Origin: an uncultured Candidatus Binatia bacterium
Lineage (GTDB): Bacteria > Desulfobacterota > Binatia > UBA9968 > CAXXLF01
Assembly (NCBI GenBank): GCA_965218425.1
Contig: OZ244621.1
Coordinates: 3,808,001-3,872,000 of the forward strand
Length of the DNA stretch: 64,000 nucleotides
Reading direction: 5' to 3'
Under the pieces are notes generated by a model. The model was not told where the DNA came from. It ran no database searches and saw only the letters and a program-made list of their open reading frames with translations. Positions 5,593 to 20,469 of this stretch are shown in pieces; positions within the stretch are counted from its first letter, which is position 1; each line of letters begins with the position of its first letter. The translations under genes were made by a program, and so were the position numbers.

Positions 5593-6072
5593 ATGGCCAT
5601 GGACGCACGTGAAATCCGTAACGTGATGGGGCATTTTGCCACCGGGGTAACGGTTATAACAACTAAAGACTCATCTGAAAAACCCTTTGGCCTAACGGTC
5701 AATTCCTTTACCTCTCTATCCCTGGATCCCCCACTGGTCATCGTTTGTGTGGACAAAACCGTGGATTGCTACTCCTGCTTTGATGGATCAAGAGTCTTTG
5801 CCGTCAATGTATTGGGCGAAGACCAGGAAGAACTATCGCGCCGCTTCGCCACCAAGGGAATCGAAAAGTTTAAAGGGCTCCAATGGCGCATGGGGGAACA
5901 CGGGTCGCCGCTCCTTGACGGTGTCGTCGCGACCATCGAGTGCAAGGTTCACCGCAGCTATGAAGGTGGCGACCATACCATTTTTCTCGGTGAAATATTA
6001 AACGCCACCGCCAGCGGGAATAGACCCCTGCTGTTTTTCAAAGGAAAGTACAATCGTCTACCGCCGCCCTAG
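5593..6072 (+). CDS. Flavin reductase family protein (HpaC/RutF-like)
   Basis: FATGVTVIT, TVNSFTSLSLDPPL, GGDHTIFLGE, PLLF motifs. Confidence 0.92.
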   Translation: MAMDAREIRNVMGHFATGVTVITTKDSSEKPFGLTVNSFTSLSLDPPLVIVCVDKTVDCYSCFDGSRVFAVNVLGEDQEELSRRFATKGIEKFKGLQWRMGEHGSPLLDGVVATIECKVHRSYEGGDHTIFLGEILNATASGNRPLLFFKGKYNRLPPP

Positions 6073-6306: not shown

Positions 6307-7047
6307 ATGCCGGTTTCCAGTGAAAGTTTCGTCAAAGAAATCCAGGAAATGGTGCAACAAAAACACTCAAAGGATCACCCTGTGATTGGGATGATAGAAA
6401 AAGGGGAGTTGAGTCGTGAGGCTCTGAAGGGATTCGTTGGCCAGTTCTATCTATTTTTCCCGAAGCCGTTTCCCAAGCCCATCGCGGCGATGTTGGGTCG
6501 GTGTCCCGATGATGAGGTATTGGAAAAAATGTGGATTGAGAACGTGGTGGAGGAGGGGACCGGGGAAATTTCCGGTACCGACAGCCACAAAGGGCTCTAT
6601 ATTCGCTTTGCTGGGGCGCTCGGGTTTTCCAAGGAGGAGCTGAACCGAGTGGAACCGCTACCCGAAACGTTGGCCTTCGTGGATTGGCGTGAGTTGCTGA
6701 TGTACCAGAGGTCCTGGTTGGAGCTCTATGCGAGTCAAGGCTTTTGCCTCGAGGGAACGGCAAGTCCCCGCATGTCGAAGATCGTTAAAGGACTAACCCG
6801 ACATTATGGTTTCAAGATGGATTCGGAAGATATCCGGTATTGGACCCTTCATATGGGAGTGGACGAAGAGCACATGAAGGTTGGCCCCGAAGCTGTGAGA
6901 AAGTATGCCGTCACCGACGTCCAACAGGATCAGGTTCGCGAGGCCGTGCAGAAGACCCTGGATATATTCTGGTTGGCCTTTGACGGCATCAAGCGTGCCT
7001 TCGTGGACAATGACCCGTTATATTCAAAGTGGAGAAATGGGTGCTAA
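6307..7047 (+). CDS. Heme-oxygenase-like diiron protein (TenA/PqqC/CADD superfamily)
   Basis: HP near N-terminus, ENVVEE...SH, LEG, WTLHMGVDEEH ligand pattern; RBS GAGGAGG. Confidence 0.8.
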   Translation: MPVSSESFVKEIQEMVQQKHSKDHPVIGMIEKGELSREALKGFVGQFYLFFPKPFPKPIAAMLGRCPDDEVLEKMWIENVVEEGTGEISGTDSHKGLYIRFAGALGFSKEELNRVEPLPETLAFVDWRELLMYQRSWLELYASQGFCLEGTASPRMSKIVKGLTRHYGFKMDSEDIRYWTLHMGVDEEHMKVGPEAVRKYAVTDVQQDQVREAVQKTLDIFWLAFDGIKRAFVDNDPLYSKWRNGC

Positions 7048-7066: not shown

Positions 7067-7723
7067 ATGGAAATGGTAGATCTTTCACGTGTTATCTATG
7101 ACGGTATGCCAAAGATCCCCGTTCTGCCCGATGTTCATGTGAATCAGTGTTTCAGCCTGGGAAAGGGGCACGCCCTCAATGTCACTGAGATCTCTTTACC
7201 GTGTCACGCCGGGACCCACGTGGATGCCCCCGTTCATATCATTGCCAATGGGAAGTCCATTGAAGAGATGCCGTTGGAGTCCTTCGTGGGACCTGGTGCG
7301 GTGATCCCGGTAGAAAAAAAGGGTGGGGAGGAGGTCACTGCCAGGGATTTAGAGGTCTCTGGGGTGACTGTTAACCGGGGAGATATACTGATGCTGTTTA
7401 CCGGCTGGGATACCAAGTTCGAGAGCCCGGACTACAATCTTCATCCCTATCTATCCGTGGACGCCGCTCAATGGATCGTGCAAAGAGGCGTTAAGCTATT
7501 CGGCATCGACTGTATCACGGTTGATCTTCCAACCACTCTAAGGCCAAAGGATTTTGCCTTTCCAGTGCATAAGACTCTCTTGGGCAACGAGGTACTCATC
7601 GCCGAAAATGTGAACAATCTGGGTCGGATCGTTGGGAAGAAGAGTCGGATCCTCGCCTTTCCCATCATGGTCAAGGGCAGCGACGCTGCCCACGCCCGGA
7701 TCGTTGCCGAGATCCTCGATTAG
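7067..7723 (+). CDS. Cyclase family (kynurenine formamidase-like) metal hydrolase
   Basis: HAGTHVDAPVH (HxGTHxDxPxH), GID, IAEN motifs; true start probably ATG 7067 after GGAGG. Confidence 0.9.
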   Translation: MEMVDLSRVIYDGMPKIPVLPDVHVNQCFSLGKGHALNVTEISLPCHAGTHVDAPVHIIANGKSIEEMPLESFVGPGAVIPVEKKGGEEVTARDLEVSGVTVNRGDILMLFTGWDTKFESPDYNLHPYLSVDAAQWIVQRGVKLFGIDCITVDLPTTLRPKDFAFPVHKTLLGNEVLIAENVNNLGRIVGKKSRILAFPIMVKGSDAAHARIVAEILD

Positions 7724-7745: not shown

Positions 7746-8714
7746 ATGCCATTCGACAAACCGGTTCACGGCATCATCGGAGCTTGTCTAACACCTTTTG
7801 GGGATGACGATCGAGTCAATTTTAAGGCGTTGGAACAAGAAATCGAATTTCTGGTGGCCGACTGTGATGCCATCTCCATCGCCGCGGTTGAGGCCGCGGA
7901 ATACACCATGCTCACCCGGAACCAGCGTAAAGAGTTGGTTCGCATCGGGACCGAGATGGTGGCAGGACGCGTGCCGGTGCTGGCGGGCTGCTCTTGCCCG
8001 TCCCCCTATGAGGTTATTGAACTGGCGGAATACGCCGCCACCGTGGGGGCCGACATGGCGCAGGTGTTGATGCAGCTTAGACCCTGGGGCCAGCAACCCA
8101 CCATAGCAGAGCTGGTGGAGTACTTTACCCAAGTGGCCTCCGCCAGTCCGTTGCCTATCGTTACCTACCACAATCCGGGTCCCGGGGCTGATCCACCCAT
8201 TGAGACTTTTGTGAAGCTTAGCGAGTTGACCAACATTCAGTACTTCAAGGAAAGCTCGCGCGATATTACCAAGATTACACGGCTGGTGGAGCAGATCGAA
8301 ATGGCGGGGAAGGGGCATTACTTCACAACCATGCAGCCCCTCCTTGCCACCCTCATGATGGGAGGCTCCGGGGCCACCATGCCGCCTCCAGGGACTCGTA
8401 TCGGCGCCCAGGTGGTGAAGGCCTTCCGTGAAGGAGACGTTAATCGAGCGCGGTATTGGCAACGGTGTTTCTCACTGTTCCCCGGTAAATGGGGGGCCTA
8501 TGGCTTACCTCCAGTAATGAAATCGGCCCTGAGACACTTCGGTGTCGATATCGGTGATCCGGTACGACCCTATACCCAGGTGACCCCGAGGGACCATGCG
8601 CAGATCGGTCAATTCTTTCGCCAGATCGGTTTGCTGGGGGACGGTGTGCCCCAAGAGCTTTCCATCAAAGAGGCCGTTGCGGGGTTGGAACAAGAAGACA
8701 CATTTCTACGCTAG
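7746..8714 (+). CDS. Dihydrodipicolinate synthase-family (class I aldolase) protein
   Basis: ACLTPF, GRVPVLAG, YHNP, Schiff-base Lys in FKESS. Confidence 0.85.
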   Translation: MPFDKPVHGIIGACLTPFGDDDRVNFKALEQEIEFLVADCDAISIAAVEAAEYTMLTRNQRKELVRIGTEMVAGRVPVLAGCSCPSPYEVIELAEYAATVGADMAQVLMQLRPWGQQPTIAELVEYFTQVASASPLPIVTYHNPGPGADPPIETFVKLSELTNIQYFKESSRDITKITRLVEQIEMAGKGHYFTTMQPLLATLMMGGSGATMPPPGTRIGAQVVKAFREGDVNRARYWQRCFSLFPGKWGAYGLPPVMKSALRHFGVDIGDPVRPYTQVTPRDHAQIGQFFRQIGLLGDGVPQELSIKEAVAGLEQEDTFLR

Positions 8715-8803: not shown

Positions 8804-9022
8804 GTGATGATACGACGAATATTTGATTGGCTCACGGAATACATCAAGACCTTTTCGGATACCATGCTGTTGCTCTTGCTTCGATCCACCTCATGGTTCG
8901 GTCGAGAGCTCACCCGGGAGGGAAGGGCGGAGCAGGACATGTGGCGGAAGCAACGGCTTAGGAACATCCGCGGCCTCGGTCTGATTTCACGCCGCCGGCA
9001 AGTGAGGCAACAGGGAGAATGA
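8804..9022 (+). CDS. Hypothetical small basic protein
   Basis: ORF with GGAG RBS directly upstream of the SQR-like gene; no recognised domain. Confidence 0.4.
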   Translation: MMIRRIFDWLTEYIKTFSDTMLLLLLRSTSWFGRELTREGRAEQDMWRKQRLRNIRGLGLISRRRQVRQQGE

Positions 9023-9065: not shown

Positions 9066-10217
9066 GTGATCAATGGGCGGGCTCAAATCGTTATCCTGGG
9101 TGGTGGTATTGGTGGCCTTGCGGCTGCCACAAAGCTGGGTCGTTCCCTTGGGGCGAAACACGATGTGATTCTAATCGATCGGCGTGATGAGCATTTCTTT
9201 ACGCCCTCCTTCCTTTTCCTGATGTTAGGGCAACGAAAGCCGCAAGATCTAAAGAGAAAACTGAAGTTACTCGAACGGCGCAAGGTCAAGGTGATACAGG
9301 CTGAGATCCTGGGTATCGACCCGGGCCGTCAGGAGGTGGTGCTTGACAGCCAGAAGATCCCCTACGATCATCTTGTCGTAGCCCTTGGCCTGCAGACGAG
9401 GCCAGAGATGATCCCTGGTTTCAGCGAGGGGGCCAACCACGCCTGGGAGATGGATGCGGCATTGAAAGTACAACGGGCCCTGCAGCAGTTTAACGAAGGC
9501 CGTATCCTCGTGGGAGTTCCGTTGGGGCCCTATCGCTGTCCGCCAGCTCCCTATGAGACCCAGTGGTTGCTGGACACCTATTTTCGCGGCCTAGGTCGGC
9601 GCGACCGTGTGGAGATCGAGTATTTCACCCGGGAACCTGAGCCTGCGGGGGAAGCCCACGACCCCGTGGTTTGGATGGACGACCAGAGTAAGAAGAGAAA
9701 TATCAAGCAGAACTACGACTTCACCGTTCAGTCCATTGACCCCGAGAAGAAAGCCGTTGTGGGTTTGTACGGTTACAGGCTCTCATACGATTTATTGTTC
9801 ATGATTCCCCCACACAGGCCCGCCCAGGTGCTCAGGGACTGTAGCTTGGCGGACACCGAGAACGGTGTCAGGATTGACTATGAGACCCTGGCCACCAAAT
9901 GGGACAATGTTTATGCCATTGGGGACTGCGCAGAGTTGCCCGCTTCTAAGGCCGGGGGAGTGGCGCACCAGGAAGCAGACGTTGTGGCCCACAACCTGGC
10001 CGTGAAAATCACGGGTCGGGGCGATCCCACCACTCTCCGGCTCCACACCATATGACTACTGGCCTGCGGCGCAGGACGCGCCGCCGCAAATCGAACTATC
10101 TATCCGCGCGGTTGGCCTCCCTTCGGAGTGATGGAATCACGCTCCTGGGGACCTTCTCGTATGATCTATTGGGCCAAGCTCGGTTTTGAAAAATGGTGGC
10201 TCTGGCGGTACTTTTAG
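9066..10217 (+). CDS. Sulfide:quinone oxidoreductase-like FAD oxidoreductase; candidate selenoprotein (TGA 10053-10055 = Sec330)
   Basis: GGGIGG FAD motif, YDHLVVALG, YRCPPAPYE, VYAIGD, KAGGVA. Frame continues past TGA as LLACGAGRAAANRTIYPRGWPPFGVMESRSWGPSRMIYWAKLGFEKWWLWRYF to TAG 10215-10217. Confidence 0.8.
10066..10084 (+). promoter_or_regulatory. Candidate bacterial SECIS hairpin
   Basis: GCGGCGC-AGGAC-GCGCCGC: 7-bp GC stem, loop begins 17 nt after the UGA, G at second loop position. Confidence 0.6.
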
Positions 10218-10218
10218 T

Positions 10219-11256
10219 TTAACGAGCGATGGGGAGCTTCTGATCGTTCCAGTCCACCATTCCACCCCGAAGGTTCGATACCTGCTCAAATCCAAGACCC
10301 GTTAGAATTGCAACTGCCGTGGTGCTGCGCACTCCCGAGCGGCAGATGGCCACCACGTGCCGGTTCTTATGCTCCTCCAGTTCATTGGCTCTTGTCGGGA
10401 GCTCTTTGAGCGGGATCAGGAGGCTTCCGGTAATATGTCCAAGCTCACCTGTATACTCCGATGGCTCCCTGATATCCAACAGGATGGGAGGGAGGGAAGT
10501 CGCAAGCAGGGCTTGCACATCCTGGGGAGATAACTGGCGCACCCGGTTCAATTCGGCCAGAGTGGGGAAAGCGATTCGGTCATCATCAAGTGCGGTCTGA
10601 TTGGGTTGTAGAACCTCTTGAATCTTGTCCGGCAGCGGCAACCCCAGGTTAGTCATGATATTCATGTAGGCCTCTTTTGTGCGTCCCGCCACCCGGGGAT
10701 TTAACCGCTTTTCGTCCCCGATCGTGGACATGGTGTTACCGCGATAGTCATGGGCAGGGAAAACCTGAGTGTCGTCCGGAAGCTGAAAGAGCTTCTGGGT
10801 AATGCCATCAAATTGCGCGCCCGCGTCACCGCCGCCAAAGTCGCATCTCCCGGTACCTCGAATGAGGAGCGTGTCTCCTGTCAGGATTTTTCCATTCACA
10901 TAGAGACTCATGCTGTCAGGGGTGTGTCCGGGTGTATGGAGAATTTTGATGGCGAGGTCACCTACGGTGAGGGTCTCTCCGTCATCCACATGAATATCCA
11001 CATAGGGTGCAGGCGCGCGTCGGTGCATGATTACATTAGCACCGGTGAGGTCTTTCAGTTCAAAGGTCCCAGTGCGGTGGTCCGCATGGGTGTGAGTATC
11101 AATGAGATCGTCAAGCCTCAATTGGTAATATCCAAGAAGGGAAAGGTATCGGTCGGTTTTTTCTCTAACCGGGTCAACCAGGACGGCCCTATGGGCGTTC
11201 TCGCAGGCAATGAGATAGGTCTTACATTTGCCGAGGTTGAGTTCTCGAAAAATCAT
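10219..11256 (-). CDS. Persulfide dioxygenase (ETHE1/Blh-type MBL) fused to C-terminal rhodanese
   Basis: THTHADH, TPGHT, GDTLLIRGTGRCD, PAHDY, STIGDEK..NPR; rhodanese DIRE..EY..GHI, CRSGVRS. Confidence 0.9.
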   Translation of the reverse strand: MIFRELNLGKCKTYLIACENAHRAVLVDPVREKTDRYLSLLGYYQLRLDDLIDTHTHADHRTGTFELKDLTGANVIMHRRAPAPYVDIHVDDGETLTVGDLAIKILHTPGHTPDSMSLYVNGKILTGDTLLIRGTGRCDFGGGDAGAQFDGITQKLFQLPDDTQVFPAHDYRGNTMSTIGDEKRLNPRVAGRTKEAYMNIMTNLGLPLPDKIQEVLQPNQTALDDDRIAFPTLAELNRVRQLSPQDVQALLATSLPPILLDIREPSEYTGELGHITGSLLIPLKELPTRANELEEHKNRHVVAICRSGVRSTTAVAILTGLGFEQVSNLRGGMVDWNDQKLPIAR

Positions 11257-11425
11257 AAATGCATCATTCCCTCCGCTTCTAACACCAAGAATAGCTATGG
11301 GCTTTCATTGTGTCAAATCAAATTTTCTGCTCCTTATGGCGTCGGTTGCTCTAATGGGCTTTGCTGTGCATAATTCCGCTGTGAATGAAGAAACGAAAAA
11401 ATCCCCACGGGCCACAGGGCCTTCC

Positions 11426-11722
11426 ATGGAACATACCTGCAGTCACTGCCTGTATTTCCAAGCTGCAAGACCGGGACGGCGTCCGCTGAAAGGGAATTGC
11501 GGTTATCATAAAGAGTGGATTGACCGTGCTTCACTCTATACCTGCAGCGAGATGAGCGCCCTTTCGTTGAAGCGAAAAGGAATCTATCGACTAAAGACAG
11601 ATGGGAAGGGGGGCTGGGTGCATGTGCGGCGTGAGGCCAAAGTCCGATCCCGACCGTTTCTGGTTAAAGGGGAAAAACCGAAAGGGAGCGGTAGAGAGCA
11701 AGGGATAGTGGAGGAATCCTAA
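11426..11722 (+). CDS. Hypothetical Cys-rich (CxxC) small protein
   Basis: MEHTCSHCLYF...C...C; start uncertain. Confidence 0.4.
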   Translation: MEHTCSHCLYFQAARPGRRPLKGNCGYHKEWIDRASLYTCSEMSALSLKRKGIYRLKTDGKGGWVHVRREAKVRSRPFLVKGEKPKGSGREQGIVEES

Positions 11723-15702: not shown

Positions 15703-15922
15703 TAAGAACCCATCTCAGAATTAAAAATAGTGTATCCTAGGGTTCATGTTAAATCTAAGTGACCAACATTGGGCCATGATCCGGGAACACTTCCCAGTTG
15801 CCGCAGTACTATCCGAACTATAAAACGGTCCATCGTCGTTTTCAGCAATGGTGTCGAAGCGAAGTATTGCGGGAAGTTCTCACCGAGCTTGCCAATGCAC
15901 TTCGAGAGGAAGGCGCCATTGA
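15703..15922 (+). mobile_element. IS5-family remnant (left end plus internally deleted transposase N-terminus)
   Basis: TAAGAACCCATCTCAGAA end-like sequence; ATG 15746 MLNLSDQHWAMIREHFP then LPQYYPNYKTVHRRFQQW. Confidence 0.7.
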
Positions 15923-16017
15923 CGGTTTGTCTGATAATTGCGGGTTGCGAAAAAAGCTTCCATTCTATAACCATAGGTGTTCAGTCCTGATGGGACTGGG
16001 AATTTTGGGGTCCAAGA

Positions 16018-16734
16018 GTGGCTGGCAATGGCGCAAAAAACGCCTCAGGGATTATCCTGAGTCGTCGTGGGGGGGACGGCGGAGTCGAAGTGTATATGAC
16101 CCGTAACCCTTCGGGTCGGTCCTCAATGGAGAACTACGCATTCCCCGTGAGTCCGGTGCAAAAGGAGGACACCCATAAAACAATGCTAAATCTTTGTTCT
16201 GGGTTAACTCCTAAGGAGGCCCGTGATGCCCTTGGAAGCGATCTAACCCCAGGGCTTTCCCTTGCCCACTGGGTGGCAGGCATCCGAGGTGTCTTCGAGC
16301 GGATGGGGATTCTATTGTGCAGCGCTGGGGGAGACACGCGCCCGGCAAGTTTGGGAATGGGCTTCAAAGACGAACTCACAAAAAAGCGGCGGCTGCTGTT
16401 AAAGGGGACAATGAGTTTTCAATCCCTTTTGGAATCCGAAGGACTTCTTTGCGACACCAGGCGCTTCAGTTGCTTTTCCCGTTGGCTCACGGCGGAAAAC
16501 TCTCGAGGGAACTATGACGTCCGTTATTTTGTAACCTCTCTGCCAGCGGATCAGAAACCCATCTTGAGATCACGGAATCGTTCTACCGGCATTTGGATAA
16601 CCCCGGAGCGTGGGATGGATCTTTTCCAGCGAGGGTCCCTTCTCGTGACATTTGCGACCTTTGCCTCGGTTCGTAGTTTGGCAGATTATGATTCTTGGGA
16701 TAGTCTTTCGTCCGAATACAAGCTTCAAGCCTAA
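16018..16734 (+). CDS. NUDIX-like (Nudt19-type) protein with degenerate Nudix box
   Basis: ASGIIL, VEVYMTR, FP....ED, SRWLT, YDVRYFV layout; no REx2EE. Confidence 0.65.
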   Translation: MAGNGAKNASGIILSRRGGDGGVEVYMTRNPSGRSSMENYAFPVSPVQKEDTHKTMLNLCSGLTPKEARDALGSDLTPGLSLAHWVAGIRGVFERMGILLCSAGGDTRPASLGMGFKDELTKKRRLLLKGTMSFQSLLESEGLLCDTRRFSCFSRWLTAENSRGNYDVRYFVTSLPADQKPILRSRNRSTGIWITPERGMDLFQRGSLLVTFATFASVRSLADYDSWDSLSSEYKLQA

Positions 16735-16889: not shown

Positions 16890-17708
16890 TTAAGGAACTC
16901 CTGGTGGTTTGTTGTTCTTGTCGTAGTAGCCGCTCGAAAACTCTGGTTTGCGTTTTTCAGAAAATGCGGCAGATCCCTCGTCATAATCCTTGCTCTGACG
17001 CAGGTGGGCGTAGTACTCCCTGTGCAGCTTGAATCCTTCCTCCCACCCTTGGATCTCGTACAATAGCTTGTAAATATACTCTTTCGTGTGGGCGGCGATC
17101 AGCCTTCCGTTCCGATTGATGGTGGAGCAAAGCTCCAAGCAGTCGTTCATGAGTTTGTCCGGCTCGCAGATTTTCTGCACGAGCCCAAGTCGGAAGGCTG
17201 TCTCGGCATCCACCATTTGACCCGTAAGGCCAAACCAAAAGGCCCAACCGGAGGGCAAGGTGCTTACGTAGGAGGGCCAAGCGGCCATGTGGGACCAACG
17301 AACCTCAGAACAACCGAATTTCGCCGCCGGAACGCAATACCGAATATCGCAGTTGAGGGCCAGGCCGAAGCCGCCGCCGACGGCAAAACCATTGATCGCC
17401 GCGATGATGGGTTTGTTGAGCTCAAGTTCACGTAGATTCGGATAAGGTCTCGGGCCAAAACGAGGTCCCTTGATCTCACCACGGGCGGCGGCCAGATTCT
17501 CCTTCAGGTCGCCCCCCGCACACCAGGAATCACCTGAGCCGGTGAGGATAATGGTCCAAACATCATCGTCGGCCTTTGCCTCTTGCCAGGCGTTCTCCAA
17601 TCCCCAGTACACGTCACGATTGATAGCGTTTTTTTTCTCCGGGCGGTTGAGTTGAATAACGGCTGTATGAGGTTCGTGCTTTTCATATTGGACAACGGAT
17701 TCTGCCAT
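16890..17708 (-). CDS. Enoyl-CoA hydratase/isomerase family protein
   Basis: LNRPEKKNA, CAGGDL, KPIIAAINGFAVGGG, AFSEKRKPEF. Confidence 0.9.
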   Translation of the reverse strand: MAESVVQYEKHEPHTAVIQLNRPEKKNAINRDVYWGLENAWQEAKADDDVWTIILTGSGDSWCAGGDLKENLAAARGEIKGPRFGPRPYPNLRELELNKPIIAAINGFAVGGGFGLALNCDIRYCVPAAKFGCSEVRWSHMAAWPSYVSTLPSGWAFWFGLTGQMVDAETAFRLGLVQKICEPDKLMNDCLELCSTINRNGRLIAAHTKEYIYKLLYEIQGWEEGFKLHREYYAHLRQSKDYDEGSAAFSEKRKPEFSSGYYDKNNKPPGVP

Positions 17709-17895
17709 TTCAGTTCCTTTCATTTTCAAGTTTTTCCTTCAGTCATGGATTGTAGATCGGACGAAGATGACTCACGTGAAATCGCAAAGGGCGCCAAAGG
17801 CGAAGAAAAAGGGAGGTCATTCTCTTCGGGTGCTTGGTGTAGCGGCGCGGTAAACTTCGTCGAAGTCCTTTGGTGAGCATTTTATCGTCGAGAAT

Positions 17896-19104
17896 CTAAA
17901 TCAGCACACCCTCTGCTTCCAATTCCTTGATCTGTTCATCGCTGAGACCCAAGAGTTCGCTCGCCACTTCATGGGTGTGCTCGCCCATGAGGGGAGCCGG
18001 ACCCCTCACCTTCCCCGGTGTCCTTGATAAACGCAAAGGGAGGCCTTCCGTAACCATCTCTCCGCCCTCAGGCTCATCGAGCTTTACCAGAAAGCCACGT
18101 GCCGCGTACTGTGCGTCCCGTTTGAACTGGTCTTCCACGTCCTGTACCACGCATGCGCAGACACCAACTCCTTGAAGCTTCTCCATGACCTCGTAGGGGT
18201 CCAGTTGGCTGGTCCAGCTCTGGACCCACTGGTCCAGTTCTTCCCTGTGCCGGAGACGGTCCAATCGAGTAGTGAATTGTCCTTTGAGATCCAGTCCCGA
18301 TTCCACCAGTAGCCGGGAAAAACGTTCCCATTCGTTTTGGTTGTAAACGGCGATGACGCACCATCGGTCGTCGCCCTTGCAAGGGTATGCCCCGTAGGGT
18401 GCGGCCACCAGACTCCGGTTTCCCTCCGGCTGCGGATCTCGACCGTTGACTGAGTATTCTAGATACCTTGGACCAAGCAGGGATGCCCCGATTTCCAGTT
18501 GAGCGTTGTCGATCCACTGGCCATTGCCGGATTTTTTTCGGCGCAACAGAGCGAGTACCACGGCGAATGCCCCCGTCACTCCTCCCATGAAGTCGGGATG
18601 CTGTGTTCTCGGCTCGGCTGTGGCGGTGGTAGCTCCCGGTCTATTCCAAAGGTAGGTGCTTCCCATGATGTTTCCCACATTAGGACCCCAGGTGAGATCC
18701 GCTGCGTGTGGGCCTGTGCTGCCAAGGCCTTTAACTCGTACAAGAATGCACGATGGATTCAGTTCCTTCAGCTTAGGGTAGTCGAGTCCCCACCTTTCCA
18801 AAACCCCTAGGCCGTAGTTTTCAATCAACACGTCGGAGACTTTGACCAGCTCTTTCACGAGCCCTGTCCCCTTCTCCGTCTTCATGTTGACAGTAAATGA
18901 CTTCTTTCCCCTATGGAGCTTGGCAAAGTCGGGTTTTTTATTCCATTTTTTCGGATCCTCACCCCTGTGTCCATCACTCCGGGTCCGAGTCTCGACCCGG
19001 ATGACCTCAGCCCCGAATTCACCCAGCACCCGTCCACAGGTTGGACCGGCCGCCCCAGTGGTTAGCTCCAATACCCGAATTCCTTCCAGAGGAAGCTCTT
19101 TCAT
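17896..19104 (-). CDS. Family III CoA-transferase (CaiB/BaiF), subunit with catalytic Asp
   Basis: LEGIRVLEL, GAEVIRVE, DVLIENY, HPDF, APLMGEHT. Confidence 0.9.
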   Translation of the reverse strand: MKELPLEGIRVLELTTGAAGPTCGRVLGEFGAEVIRVETRTRSDGHRGEDPKKWNKKPDFAKLHRGKKSFTVNMKTEKGTGLVKELVKVSDVLIENYGLGVLERWGLDYPKLKELNPSCILVRVKGLGSTGPHAADLTWGPNVGNIMGSTYLWNRPGATTATAEPRTQHPDFMGGVTGAFAVVLALLRRKKSGNGQWIDNAQLEIGASLLGPRYLEYSVNGRDPQPEGNRSLVAAPYGAYPCKGDDRWCVIAVYNQNEWERFSRLLVESGLDLKGQFTTRLDRLRHREELDQWVQSWTSQLDPYEVMEKLQGVGVCACVVQDVEDQFKRDAQYAARGFLVKLDEPEGGEMVTEGLPLRLSRTPGKVRGPAPLMGEHTHEVASELLGLSDEQIKELEAEGVLI

Positions 19105-19135
19105 GGTGAACTCTCCCGCATTCGAAGTGAACCCA

Positions 19136-20344
19136 TTAGATTGCACCCGCAGCCCTTAGTGCTACTAAGTCTTGCTTGGAAAACCCCAGTTCTCCGCAAT
19201 AGATTTCCTCATTGTGCTCACCGATCAAAGGTGCGGTCCTGGTTACTTCACCTGGGGTTTCGCTGAACCTGGGCACCGGGCCAAAGTGTAAATATTTGCC
19301 GACCAATGGATGTTCCATCTCGACGAAAAGTTCCCGGGCCTTTGTGTGGGCACTTTCCATGAACTCACGCGCGGTGTTGATGGGGGTAACGCTAATTCGG
19401 CGTTTTTGCCCTTCTTCGTAAAGCTCCTCTTTAGTGTGGCGCTGGCAGAATTCCGTGATCAACTTCATGACCATCTCGGGATGTTCCCGACGGTAGGCCA
19501 TTTTTTCGAATTCGGGTCCCGCGATGGCCTCAGGGCGCCCCATCCAGTCCACCAACCGTTGCCATTGTTCCACGGGGATAATGAAAATCCGCACATAGCC
19601 GTTTTTCGTTGGGTAGGGGTCGTACAGGTCCGTTTCCTCCCCTCTCCTCGATAGTCGGCTAGCCTTCGCTCCCGTGTACGCGTAATTGGGGATAAAGTAT
19701 CCAGCGATGTGGGCGGCACATTCATGCATGGAGACATCAATTTCTTGTCCCTCACCGCTCTTCTCTCGATCGTACAGCGCAATGGCGATGCCCAGGGCCC
19801 CGTAAGTAGAAGCCATGCCATAGGCAATCTCCCCCGGCCCCTGCAGAGGGGGCTCCCCCGGCTCTCCCGTTAGGACCATGAGATTACTGAGGGCGAGACC
19901 GGCAATGTCAGTGGCCTTGTAGTCCCGCCAGGGTCCGGTCTGTCCGAAGGGCGTGATGGATGTAAAGATCATTCGGGGATTCACGGAACTTAACCCACGG
20001 TAGCCCAGACCCAACTCGTCCAGTCGCCCGGGACGATGGGTATTCACTACCACATCGGCGGAACGCGCAAGTTCTACAAGGATGGATTGCCCGTCGCGGG
20101 ATTCCAGATTCAGGGTAATGCCACGTTTATTTGTGTTGTAGTGCAAGAAATAAAGGCTCTTTTCCGGATGCGGCAGGTCATCTTTGAACGGCGGCATTCC
20201 ACGTGCTTCGTCCCCGCCTAGCGGCTCCACCTTCATCACGTCAGCCCCCATGTCGGCCAGAAGCTTTACGCAATGAAAACCAAGGGGGCCGGACATATCC
20301 AGAACGCGGCAACCCGATAGTAATGAGATTTGATTAGCATTCAT
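19136..20344 (-). CDS. Family III CoA-transferase subunit, apparently lacking catalytic Asp
   Basis: LADMGADVMKVEP, NTNKRGITLNL, SITPFGQTGP, APLIGEHN; IAYG at the expected Asp site. Confidence 0.88.
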   Translation of the reverse strand: MNANQISLLSGCRVLDMSGPLGFHCVKLLADMGADVMKVEPLGGDEARGMPPFKDDLPHPEKSLYFLHYNTNKRGITLNLESRDGQSILVELARSADVVVNTHRPGRLDELGLGYRGLSSVNPRMIFTSITPFGQTGPWRDYKATDIAGLALSNLMVLTGEPGEPPLQGPGEIAYGMASTYGALGIAIALYDREKSGEGQEIDVSMHECAAHIAGYFIPNYAYTGAKASRLSRRGEETDLYDPYPTKNGYVRIFIIPVEQWQRLVDWMGRPEAIAGPEFEKMAYRREHPEMVMKLITEFCQRHTKEELYEEGQKRRISVTPINTAREFMESAHTKARELFVEMEHPLVGKYLHFGPVPRFSETPGEVTRTAPLIGEHNEEIYCGELGFSKQDLVALRAAGAI

Positions 20345-20469
20345 GGTGACGGTTTTGCTCCATCCATGGGATGACATAGCCTAGTTACTCGTATCACAGC
20401 ACCATGTCAAGCATGGGAATGCAGGCTCAAGCTACGGTCAAGCACATCAAACGAATTTATCGAAGAAAT

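Follow-up and report, generated by a model that had tools for sequence, protein, structure and literature searches.

A separate branch of predicted selenocysteine-containing sulfide:quinone oxidoreductase-like flavoproteins in one order of Candidatus Binatia

Results and discussion

Gene organization of the locus

Analysis of a 64,000-nt window of contig OZ244621.1, from an uncultured Candidatus Binatia bacterium, revealed at positions 9066..10217 of the forward strand a flavoprotein gene of the SQR/FCSD family (SQR, sulfide:quinone oxidoreductase) with an in-frame UGA that apparently encodes selenocysteine (Sec). The frame opens with a GTG codon at 9066, runs to the residues LHTI and the TGA at 10053..10055, and continues through 53 sense codons, ending in WAKLGFEKWWLWRYF and a TAG at 10215-10217; read-through would yield a protein of 383 aa with a predicted Sec330 in the motif H-T-I-U. 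The TAG lies one base from the stop of the convergent gene (10219-10221). Both the extension behind the TGA and this one-base distance had been described in the original prediction, made from the letters of this stretch, and the coordinates bear them out. The codon at 10053, singled out there as worth checking, was compared with assembled contigs covering the stretch: those from three of four runs, representing three studies, show no differences, one of the runs being possibly the source sample and the fourth run having no coverage of the codon.

The putative Sec-SQR gene is the last of a run of same-strand genes separated by gaps of 19-92 nt. The run starts with a gene for a heme-oxygenase-like diiron protein (6307..7047, +; CADD/PqqC/BesC-like, with Glu/His motifs present), which is linked to the Sec-SQR gene in 70/73 informative loci and was found in 52/61 relatives and, at E 1e-30, in 0/200 genomes of the wider phylum. 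It is followed by a metal amidohydrolase of the cyclase/kynurenine-formamidase family (7067..7723, +, start codon inferred; motif HAGTHVD), linked in 81/82 informative loci, and by a class I aldolase-like gene of the DHDPS/NAL family (7746..8714, +), in which the YFKES motif is kept and the substrate motif altered, and which lies upstream in all 105 informative loci. Between the latter and the Sec-SQR gene is a small ORF of 71 aa with an amphipathic N-terminus (about 8807..9022, +), present upstream in 69/72 informative loci. A flavin reductase gene (HpaC-like; 5593-6072, +) was considered as a further member of the operon and rejected, being adjacent in only 4/63 informative loci.

On the other side, the reverse strand carries a persulfide dioxygenase (PDO)-like MBL protein fused to rhodanese (10219..11256, −; motifs HTHADH and CRSGVRS), convergent here and adjoining in only 18/102 informative loci, of which 12 have it on the same strand and 6 in convergent orientation. 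Beyond it is a small ORF with four cysteines in the arrangement CxxC-x16-C-x14-C (11366..11722, +, start codon inferred); all four are invariant in 29 aligned rows. The four-Cys ORF occurs in 36/61 genomes, all of them carriers of the Sec-SQR gene, and in 45/112 informative loci. It has no match in Pfam, its AF2 model, with a pLDDT of 52, is of too low a quality for structure comparison, and its Atlas matches are hypothetical clusters only; the cysteine spacing resembles that of HiPIP, a likeness that Pfam does not support. The 71-aa ORF is found in 54/61 genomes, the same 54 that have an SQR orthologue, whole or in part; its product matched nothing in Pfam or NCBIfam (best Atlas score an uninformative 0.75), and 19/68 of its homologues contain a strongly hydrophobic segment. 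This linkage makes it a candidate membrane or accessory partner, co-occurrence of the small ORFs with the Sec-SQR gene denoting linkage and not binding. Both small ORFs are easily missed, because one is shorter than 80 aa and the other lies inside a longer spurious frame.

Conservation of the in-frame UGA and of the reading frame behind it

The comparison covered 61 genomes, namely, the present one and 60 others of the same order, of which one has an N-terminal piece of the gene only and seven have no orthologue. A single TGA is present in 53/53 orthologue matches that cover the site (at least 68% identity), and its position was confirmed by direct reading in 30/30 of these genome loci. The pattern HT[IL]-TGA-LL was found in 130/130 loci from genome and metagenome scans, a set that is not deduplicated, and the TGA together with the 53-codon tail is present in 80/80 metagenome loci. 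In a set of 80 loci, the search pattern caught 74, of which 62 are unique; all 62 carry the TGA and 61 the complete tail, the remaining one running into the end of its locus. The six loci missed by the pattern also carry TGA; in one of them, L116, the frame changes close to this codon. These loci are kin, so the counts are not independent of one another. The tail itself evolves as coding sequence under purifying selection (codons 11-53: pN 0.11 versus pS 0.75 in 57 pairwise comparisons) and is better conserved than the part upstream, with amino acid identities of 83% in the tail and 75% in the 150 codons preceding the UGA.

This pattern bears directly on the possibility that the UGA is a genuine stop and the product a truncated protein of 329 aa or the remnant of a nonsense mutation. 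Such a reading could draw on the databases, where 118 of the best 120 homologues are annotated as ending exactly at the UGA, immediately before the Sec residue, and on the fact that TGA is a normal stop codon in this family, serving as the final stop in 21/62 loci. However, the codon at the site is invariably TGA and never TAA or TAG (62/62 unique loci; 80/80 metagenome loci), the length of the tail is kept and its conservation exceeds that of the upstream part, and truncation would, judging from the structural model, remove a catalytic residue along with the entire C-terminal domain. We accordingly regard a real stop as highly improbable. Still more improbable is that the UGA is read as Trp or Gly (codes 4 or 25) or as Cys by read-through, or that it is a sequencing error: the column holds Cys in homologues, TGA ends genes in this genome, for example the small ORF, the contigs of three studies are identical, and a tRNA-Sec with a TCA anticodon is present. 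A stop or an artefact, taken jointly, is very improbable, and decoding of the UGA as Sec is, from these comparisons, nearly certain.

The two full-length proteins among the best 120 homologues have Cys (P0010) and Asn (P0020) at the Sec site. P0010 is 68% identical to the present protein and represents a naturally occurring Cys variant within the clade; its hairpin-encoding segment GAGRAA is changed to EPGKAA, as expected when a SECIS element is no longer needed. P0020 reads HDLN, has an altered CPPALYE motif and is possibly an inactive or re-purposed paralogue. One clade thus offers natural Sec, Cys and Asn forms. The gene is present in 53/61 relatives of this uncultured group, yet nearly all of the best 120 database homologues lack the catalytic residue and the terminal helix.

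The orthologues are confined to a narrow range: they occur in 43/50 genomes of the same order and in 0/251 other genomes of the class, among which only two distant matches (35-37% identity, no stop) were recovered. The closest titled match is 'uncultured Candidatus Binatia' (90% identity). A broad distribution over several phyla is not borne out by these data; some loci titled with other phyla are among the 12/74 that duplicate loci of this order. Two further proteins, P0122 (59% identity, ending in HTL) and P0135 (46%, ending in HTI), may extend the range. The Binatota have been described as aerobic methylotrophs and alkane degraders (PMC8262859); neither 'sqr' nor 'seleno' appears in the main text of that report.

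A bSECIS-type hairpin and the selenocysteine machinery

Downstream of the UGA, at 10066..10084 (+), lies the hairpin GCGGCGC-AGGAC-GCGCCGC, with a 7-bp stem that includes a conserved core of 6 bp. Its position, its distance of 17 nt from the UGA and the G at loop position 2 are as originally described, and the proposed fit to the bacterial SECIS model holds as well: the consensus allows loops of 3-9 nt, stems of 4-16 bp, a G in the first two loop positions, a spacing of 16-37 nt and a minimum free energy of at most −7.5 (PMC13188914), and the present hairpin, compared with these published limits, has a loop of 5 nt beginning with AG, a stem of 7 bp, a spacing of 17 nt and a fold energy of −16.6 kcal/mol. 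As a single sequence, its signal is modest (z −1.71, with 14/200 shuffles as good; z +0.40 for 78 nt), and we rejected the fold energy as proof of a SECIS element. It is conservation across relatives that takes the signal far beyond chance. Three third codon positions in the stem (Gly, Arg and Ala codons) are C or T in 59/59 full-length loci, as pairing requires, whereas the 78 control columns stay at or below 0.90, with none at 0.97 or more, and the adjoining unpaired third positions vary (0.15-0.61). The same synonymous constraint is repeated in 80/80 metagenome loci. Compensatory double changes were found in 0/6 stem pairs across 40 loci; 99.2% of cells are paired and five pairs vary one-sidedly.

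To gauge how often such a configuration arises, a crude filter combining read-through and a hairpin was applied to the genome: of 1403 ATG-started, TGA-ended ORFs of at least 150 aa, 278 continue for 50 codons, 11 have a hairpin and 5 have both. The four other passing frames (G000:C1:1174247+, 4425719+, 2850723+ and 2286647−) are probably chance frames.

The genome (4.46 Mb in one contig, 97% complete) encodes the complete decoding apparatus: selA, selB and selD score above cut-off and, together with a tRNA-Sec with anticodon TCA, lie within about 11 kb, so the search for selA, selB, selC and selD proposed along with the original prediction found all four. The selD gene has an in-frame TGA of its own. 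Across the order, selA is present in 58/61 relatives and in 52/53 genomes with the TGA gene. The exception, G047 (96% complete, 210 contigs), carries the TGA gene and no selA, selB or selD was found in it, a point that might speak for a real stop; given that the sel genes lie within 11 kb in the present genome, a single missing contig would explain their absence. In another genome, G005 (100% complete by markers, 240 contigs), selA, selB, selD, the SQR gene, the small ORF and the aldolase gene were not found, and the diiron gene lies close to the end of a contig.

None of the findings that had been set down beforehand as contradicting a Sec codon was obtained: the sel genes are present, the column is Cys in homologues, the contigs read TGA, and the relatives have both TGA and hairpin.

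Active site and fold

The affiliation with SQR/FCSD-type flavoproteins, as originally proposed, was supported by matches to the Pyr_redox_2 and FCSD_central domains and by structure comparison. An AF2 model with Cys in place of Sec has a pLDDT of 95.6, places residue 330 in a strand (327-335) and ends in a helix (365-382). Foldseek ranked human, Aquifex and Acidithiobacillus SQRs first (TM 0.84-0.88), followed by FCSD (0.83-0.84) and NDH-2 (0.77). The protein combines an FAD Rossmann fold with the two catalytic positions, both features of SQR/FCSD flavoproteins, and contains a single GxGxxG motif and hence no second nucleotide-binding motif. Of the features that would set an SQR apart from FCSD, the terminal helix with its KxxFEKWW motif and the residues I329 and L331 are present, but the hydrophobic moment is moderate (maximum 0.39) and the TM values of FCSD are close. 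The best NCBIfam match is a type III SQR model, below cut-off.

The first catalytic residue, Cys158, is encoded by TGT at 9537..9539 (+) within YRCPPAPYE, the CPxxPYE motif named in the original prediction; it is Cys in 58/58 orthologues and invariant in an alignment of 88 rows. In an alignment with human SQOR, U330 falls on the Cys of 'YTSCPL' and C158 on that of 'VKCAG'. Of 145 library proteins, 108 have Cys at the position of U330, 16 terminate ahead of it, and 21 have other letters or gaps. The conserved TGA thus coincides with the C-terminal Cys of SQRs, as expected if the UGA encodes Sec330 at the second catalytic position, and the alignment, along with the fold match, suggests that C158 and U330 are paired beside the FAD. 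The original prediction had further proposed a U-x3-C motif. It is literally present here, but the residue at U+4 in 58 orthologues is Cys in only 20, Phe in 19, Tyr in 16 and Leu, Val or Met in 3, and a redox role for this motif was therefore rejected.

In SQRs, the quinone channel is lined by apolar residues on both sides of the C-terminal Cys and by a Phe of the C-terminal helix (PMC9666304); mapped by motif, I329, L331 and F374 fit these positions. The helix matters to different degrees in the enzymes described in the same source: SqrC of C. maquilingensis without its terminal helices is soluble and inactive, and SqrF of T. roseopersicina without the helix keeps 55-83% of its activity (PMC9666304). 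Since SQR works through sulfur-sulfur chemistry, a natural Cys/Sec active site would allow a direct test of what selenium adds.

Relationship to previously predicted Sec-SQRs

The original prediction implied that SQR would be new as a selenoprotein family. This does not hold: published predictions (NF049943; deep-Sep, 2025) already include a Sec-SQR, with its Sec at the identical HxxU position. It is listed with the motif HxxU, citing deep-Sep (PMC13188914), and DGHAV-U is given as a prediction for two Desulfosediminicola proteins (PMC12013277, Table S2). Of the over-cut-off NF049943 matches in 301 genomes of the phylum, 20 were taken and 7 have TGA, in 7/7 cases in the same column as U330; the site was thus already known as a prediction. 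Both the NF049943 proteins and the present one are predicted Sec-SQRs of the same fold family, with one Sec in an HxxU motif (DGHAV-U and DGHAT-U versus LHTI-U) and a hairpin behind the UGA. The differences are nevertheless considerable: the present protein scores 245.4 bits against a cut-off of 525 and is 28-36% identical to NF049943 members, its tail has 53 residues compared with 79-98 in NF049943, the hairpin sequences are unrelated, and Sec is near-fixed in the present clade as opposed to 7/20 over-cut-off matches. Because NF049943 does not catch the present protein, its function is likely to be misread. In each of two genomes, G332 and G359 (L052/L077 and L054/L076), NF049943 is represented twice, by one copy with Cys and one with Sec.

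Phylogenetic analysis points in the same direction. A single clade uniting the present proteins with the NF049943 Sec members was rejected (p-AU 7.8e-43; 35-row IQ-TREE analysis with the site masked), and on this value and the bit score we rejected membership in NF049943. In a FastTree phylogeny of 110 rows, for which 64 library rows were dropped for length or rank and 10 of 23 Sec-clade rows kept, the present clade forms its own branch with 99% support and P0010 nested inside; it sits on a long stem and has its own motifs, HAWE and HTIU. Sec was probably gained at the SQR site separately from NF049943. Separate gains are the simpler reading of the tree; an old Sec with many losses is less likely but conceivable, given that truncated Sec forms are under-sampled. 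In the protein libraries that supply the Cys background, Sec forms are cut short, and this tilts the comparison towards separate gains. Judged by these comparisons, the gene is a genuine selenoprotein gene, a separate branch of an already predicted kind: what sets it apart is the branch itself, its near-fixation in one order, its habitual annotation in truncated form and the conserved operon, whereas the Sec-SQR as such was a prediction of 2025. No title or abstract describing the branch or its operon turned up in the literature searched, which lay outside subscription journals and bioRxiv supplements.

Truncation at this site recurs elsewhere in the family. Among 18 short library rows, 6 end exactly before the Cys. 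Three lineages (P0167/P0296, P0194/P0295/P0298 and P0252/P0297) consist of proteins whose last residue is the one preceding the catalytic Cys, and close relatives of each are truncated at that point too. These lineages may conceal further Sec-SQRs; a truncated protein of the NF049943 type is exemplified by P0188.

Among characterized enzymes, human SQOR and type I SQRs (PDB 6oi5, 3hyv, 3sz0) and FCSD (1fcd, 5n1t) are the best sequence and fold matches, human SQOR having both catalytic Cys positions aligned with C158 and U330, but their identity to the present protein is only 20-25%, and 22-25% in the case of solved SQRs. The HAWE segment contains no Cys; it occupies the position where type I SQRs carry a third Cys. 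FCSD has a cytochrome gene partner, whereas the annotated conserved neighbours here include no gene recognised as a cytochrome gene; the N-terminus of the present protein begins directly with the FAD motif. Type III SQRs (SqrC of Caldivirga maquilingensis; MFUM_v2_0219 of Methylacidiphilum fumariolicum), for which quinone-linked sulfide oxidation has been reported, share the two-residue active site and, going by their published description, the C-terminal helix with a conserved Phe (PMC9666304, PMC10205796), but have Cys where the present protein has Sec. Moreover, the operon that holds the type III gene of M. fumariolicum SolV also encodes TusA and DsrE2 carriers; a search of the present genome, by contrast, recovered no DsrE carrier.

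Proposed function

In the mechanism that we propose, the downstream hairpin, SelB and tRNA-Sec would decode the UGA as Sec, giving a 383-aa FAD-dependent enzyme of the SQR type. Sec330 would take the place of the C-terminal catalytic Cys in this enzyme and form a pair with Cys158. By analogy with SQR biochemistry, sulfide would attack the Cys158/Sec330 bridge, and electrons would pass through FAD to a membrane quinone near Ile329/Leu331 and helix 365-382. The sulfane sulfur would then be handed to a thiol or carrier or, in some lineages, to the adjacent PDO-rhodanese. These steps are modelled on the SQR-PDO-rhodanese route (PMC9163753) and on type III activity (PMC10205796). The likeness to the heterotrophic pathway lies in the SQR-like gene adjoining a PDO-rhodanese fusion; the resemblance is limited in that the fusion adjoins in a minority of loci and the conserved operon genes lie outside that pathway (PMC9163753). 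From genomic context, the diiron oxidase, the amidohydrolase and the aldolase might break down a sulfur-containing organic compound and release sulfide, and the 71-aa product might serve as an accessory or membrane-anchoring subunit. Comparison with relatives and homologues establishes the position and conservation of the predicted Sec, the constraint on the hairpin, the machinery and the fold; that the enzyme has sulfide:quinone activity is, by analogy, a reasonable expectation held with some reserve, and that the operon is the source of the sulfide we put forward only tentatively.

The main rival retains the selenoprotein and assigns it a job other than the oxidation of free sulfide, since the genes that are always linked to it are not known sulfur genes. 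The substrate could be an intermediate of the operon pathway, either an organic thiol, a persulfide, a thioacid or a selenide, or the enzyme could act as a reductase, with the four-Cys protein or the diiron enzyme as a possible electron acceptor. The linkage is tightest to the aldolase-like, cyclase and diiron genes (105/105, 81/82 and 70/73), compared with 18/102 for PDO, the clade has a long stem and motifs of its own, and human SQOR is reported to oxidise hydrogen selenide as well (10.1101/2023.04.13.535674). Against such a role, the two-residue active site, the apolar residues around U330 and the KxxFEKWW helix are SQR-like (PMC9666304), no other SQR/FCSD-type gene was found in the genome, and PDO-rhodanese adjoins in both orientations. 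On balance, a non-sulfide role is a serious but less likely alternative, and oxidation of sulfide by the predicted Sec-SQR is the reading we prefer.

The constancy of the operon suggests a pathway that is as yet undescribed. In its most far-reaching form, which we offer as speculation that is unlikely to hold in full, a near-core pathway of one Ca. Binatia order would employ an independently evolved Sec-SQR, joined to one or two small proteins in a membrane complex of a new kind, to dispose of sulfur (or selenium) from an organosulfur compound by way of a new diiron oxidase/amidohydrolase/aldolase route. Recruitment of Sec to the SQR site would then have happened on two occasions at the least, and possibly on five, counting the three further lineages that end exactly before the Cys.

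Some variation and additional genes surround this core. In 10/51 loci (L091:632-1729 and nine others), an Amidohydro_2 gene lies directly upstream of the diiron gene. Elsewhere in the window are an ORF fragment (15798-16106, +) that we take to resemble a transposase remnant and, at 16890-20377 on the reverse strand, what appear to be three consecutive genes, one for an enoyl-CoA hydratase and two for CoA-transferases of family III.
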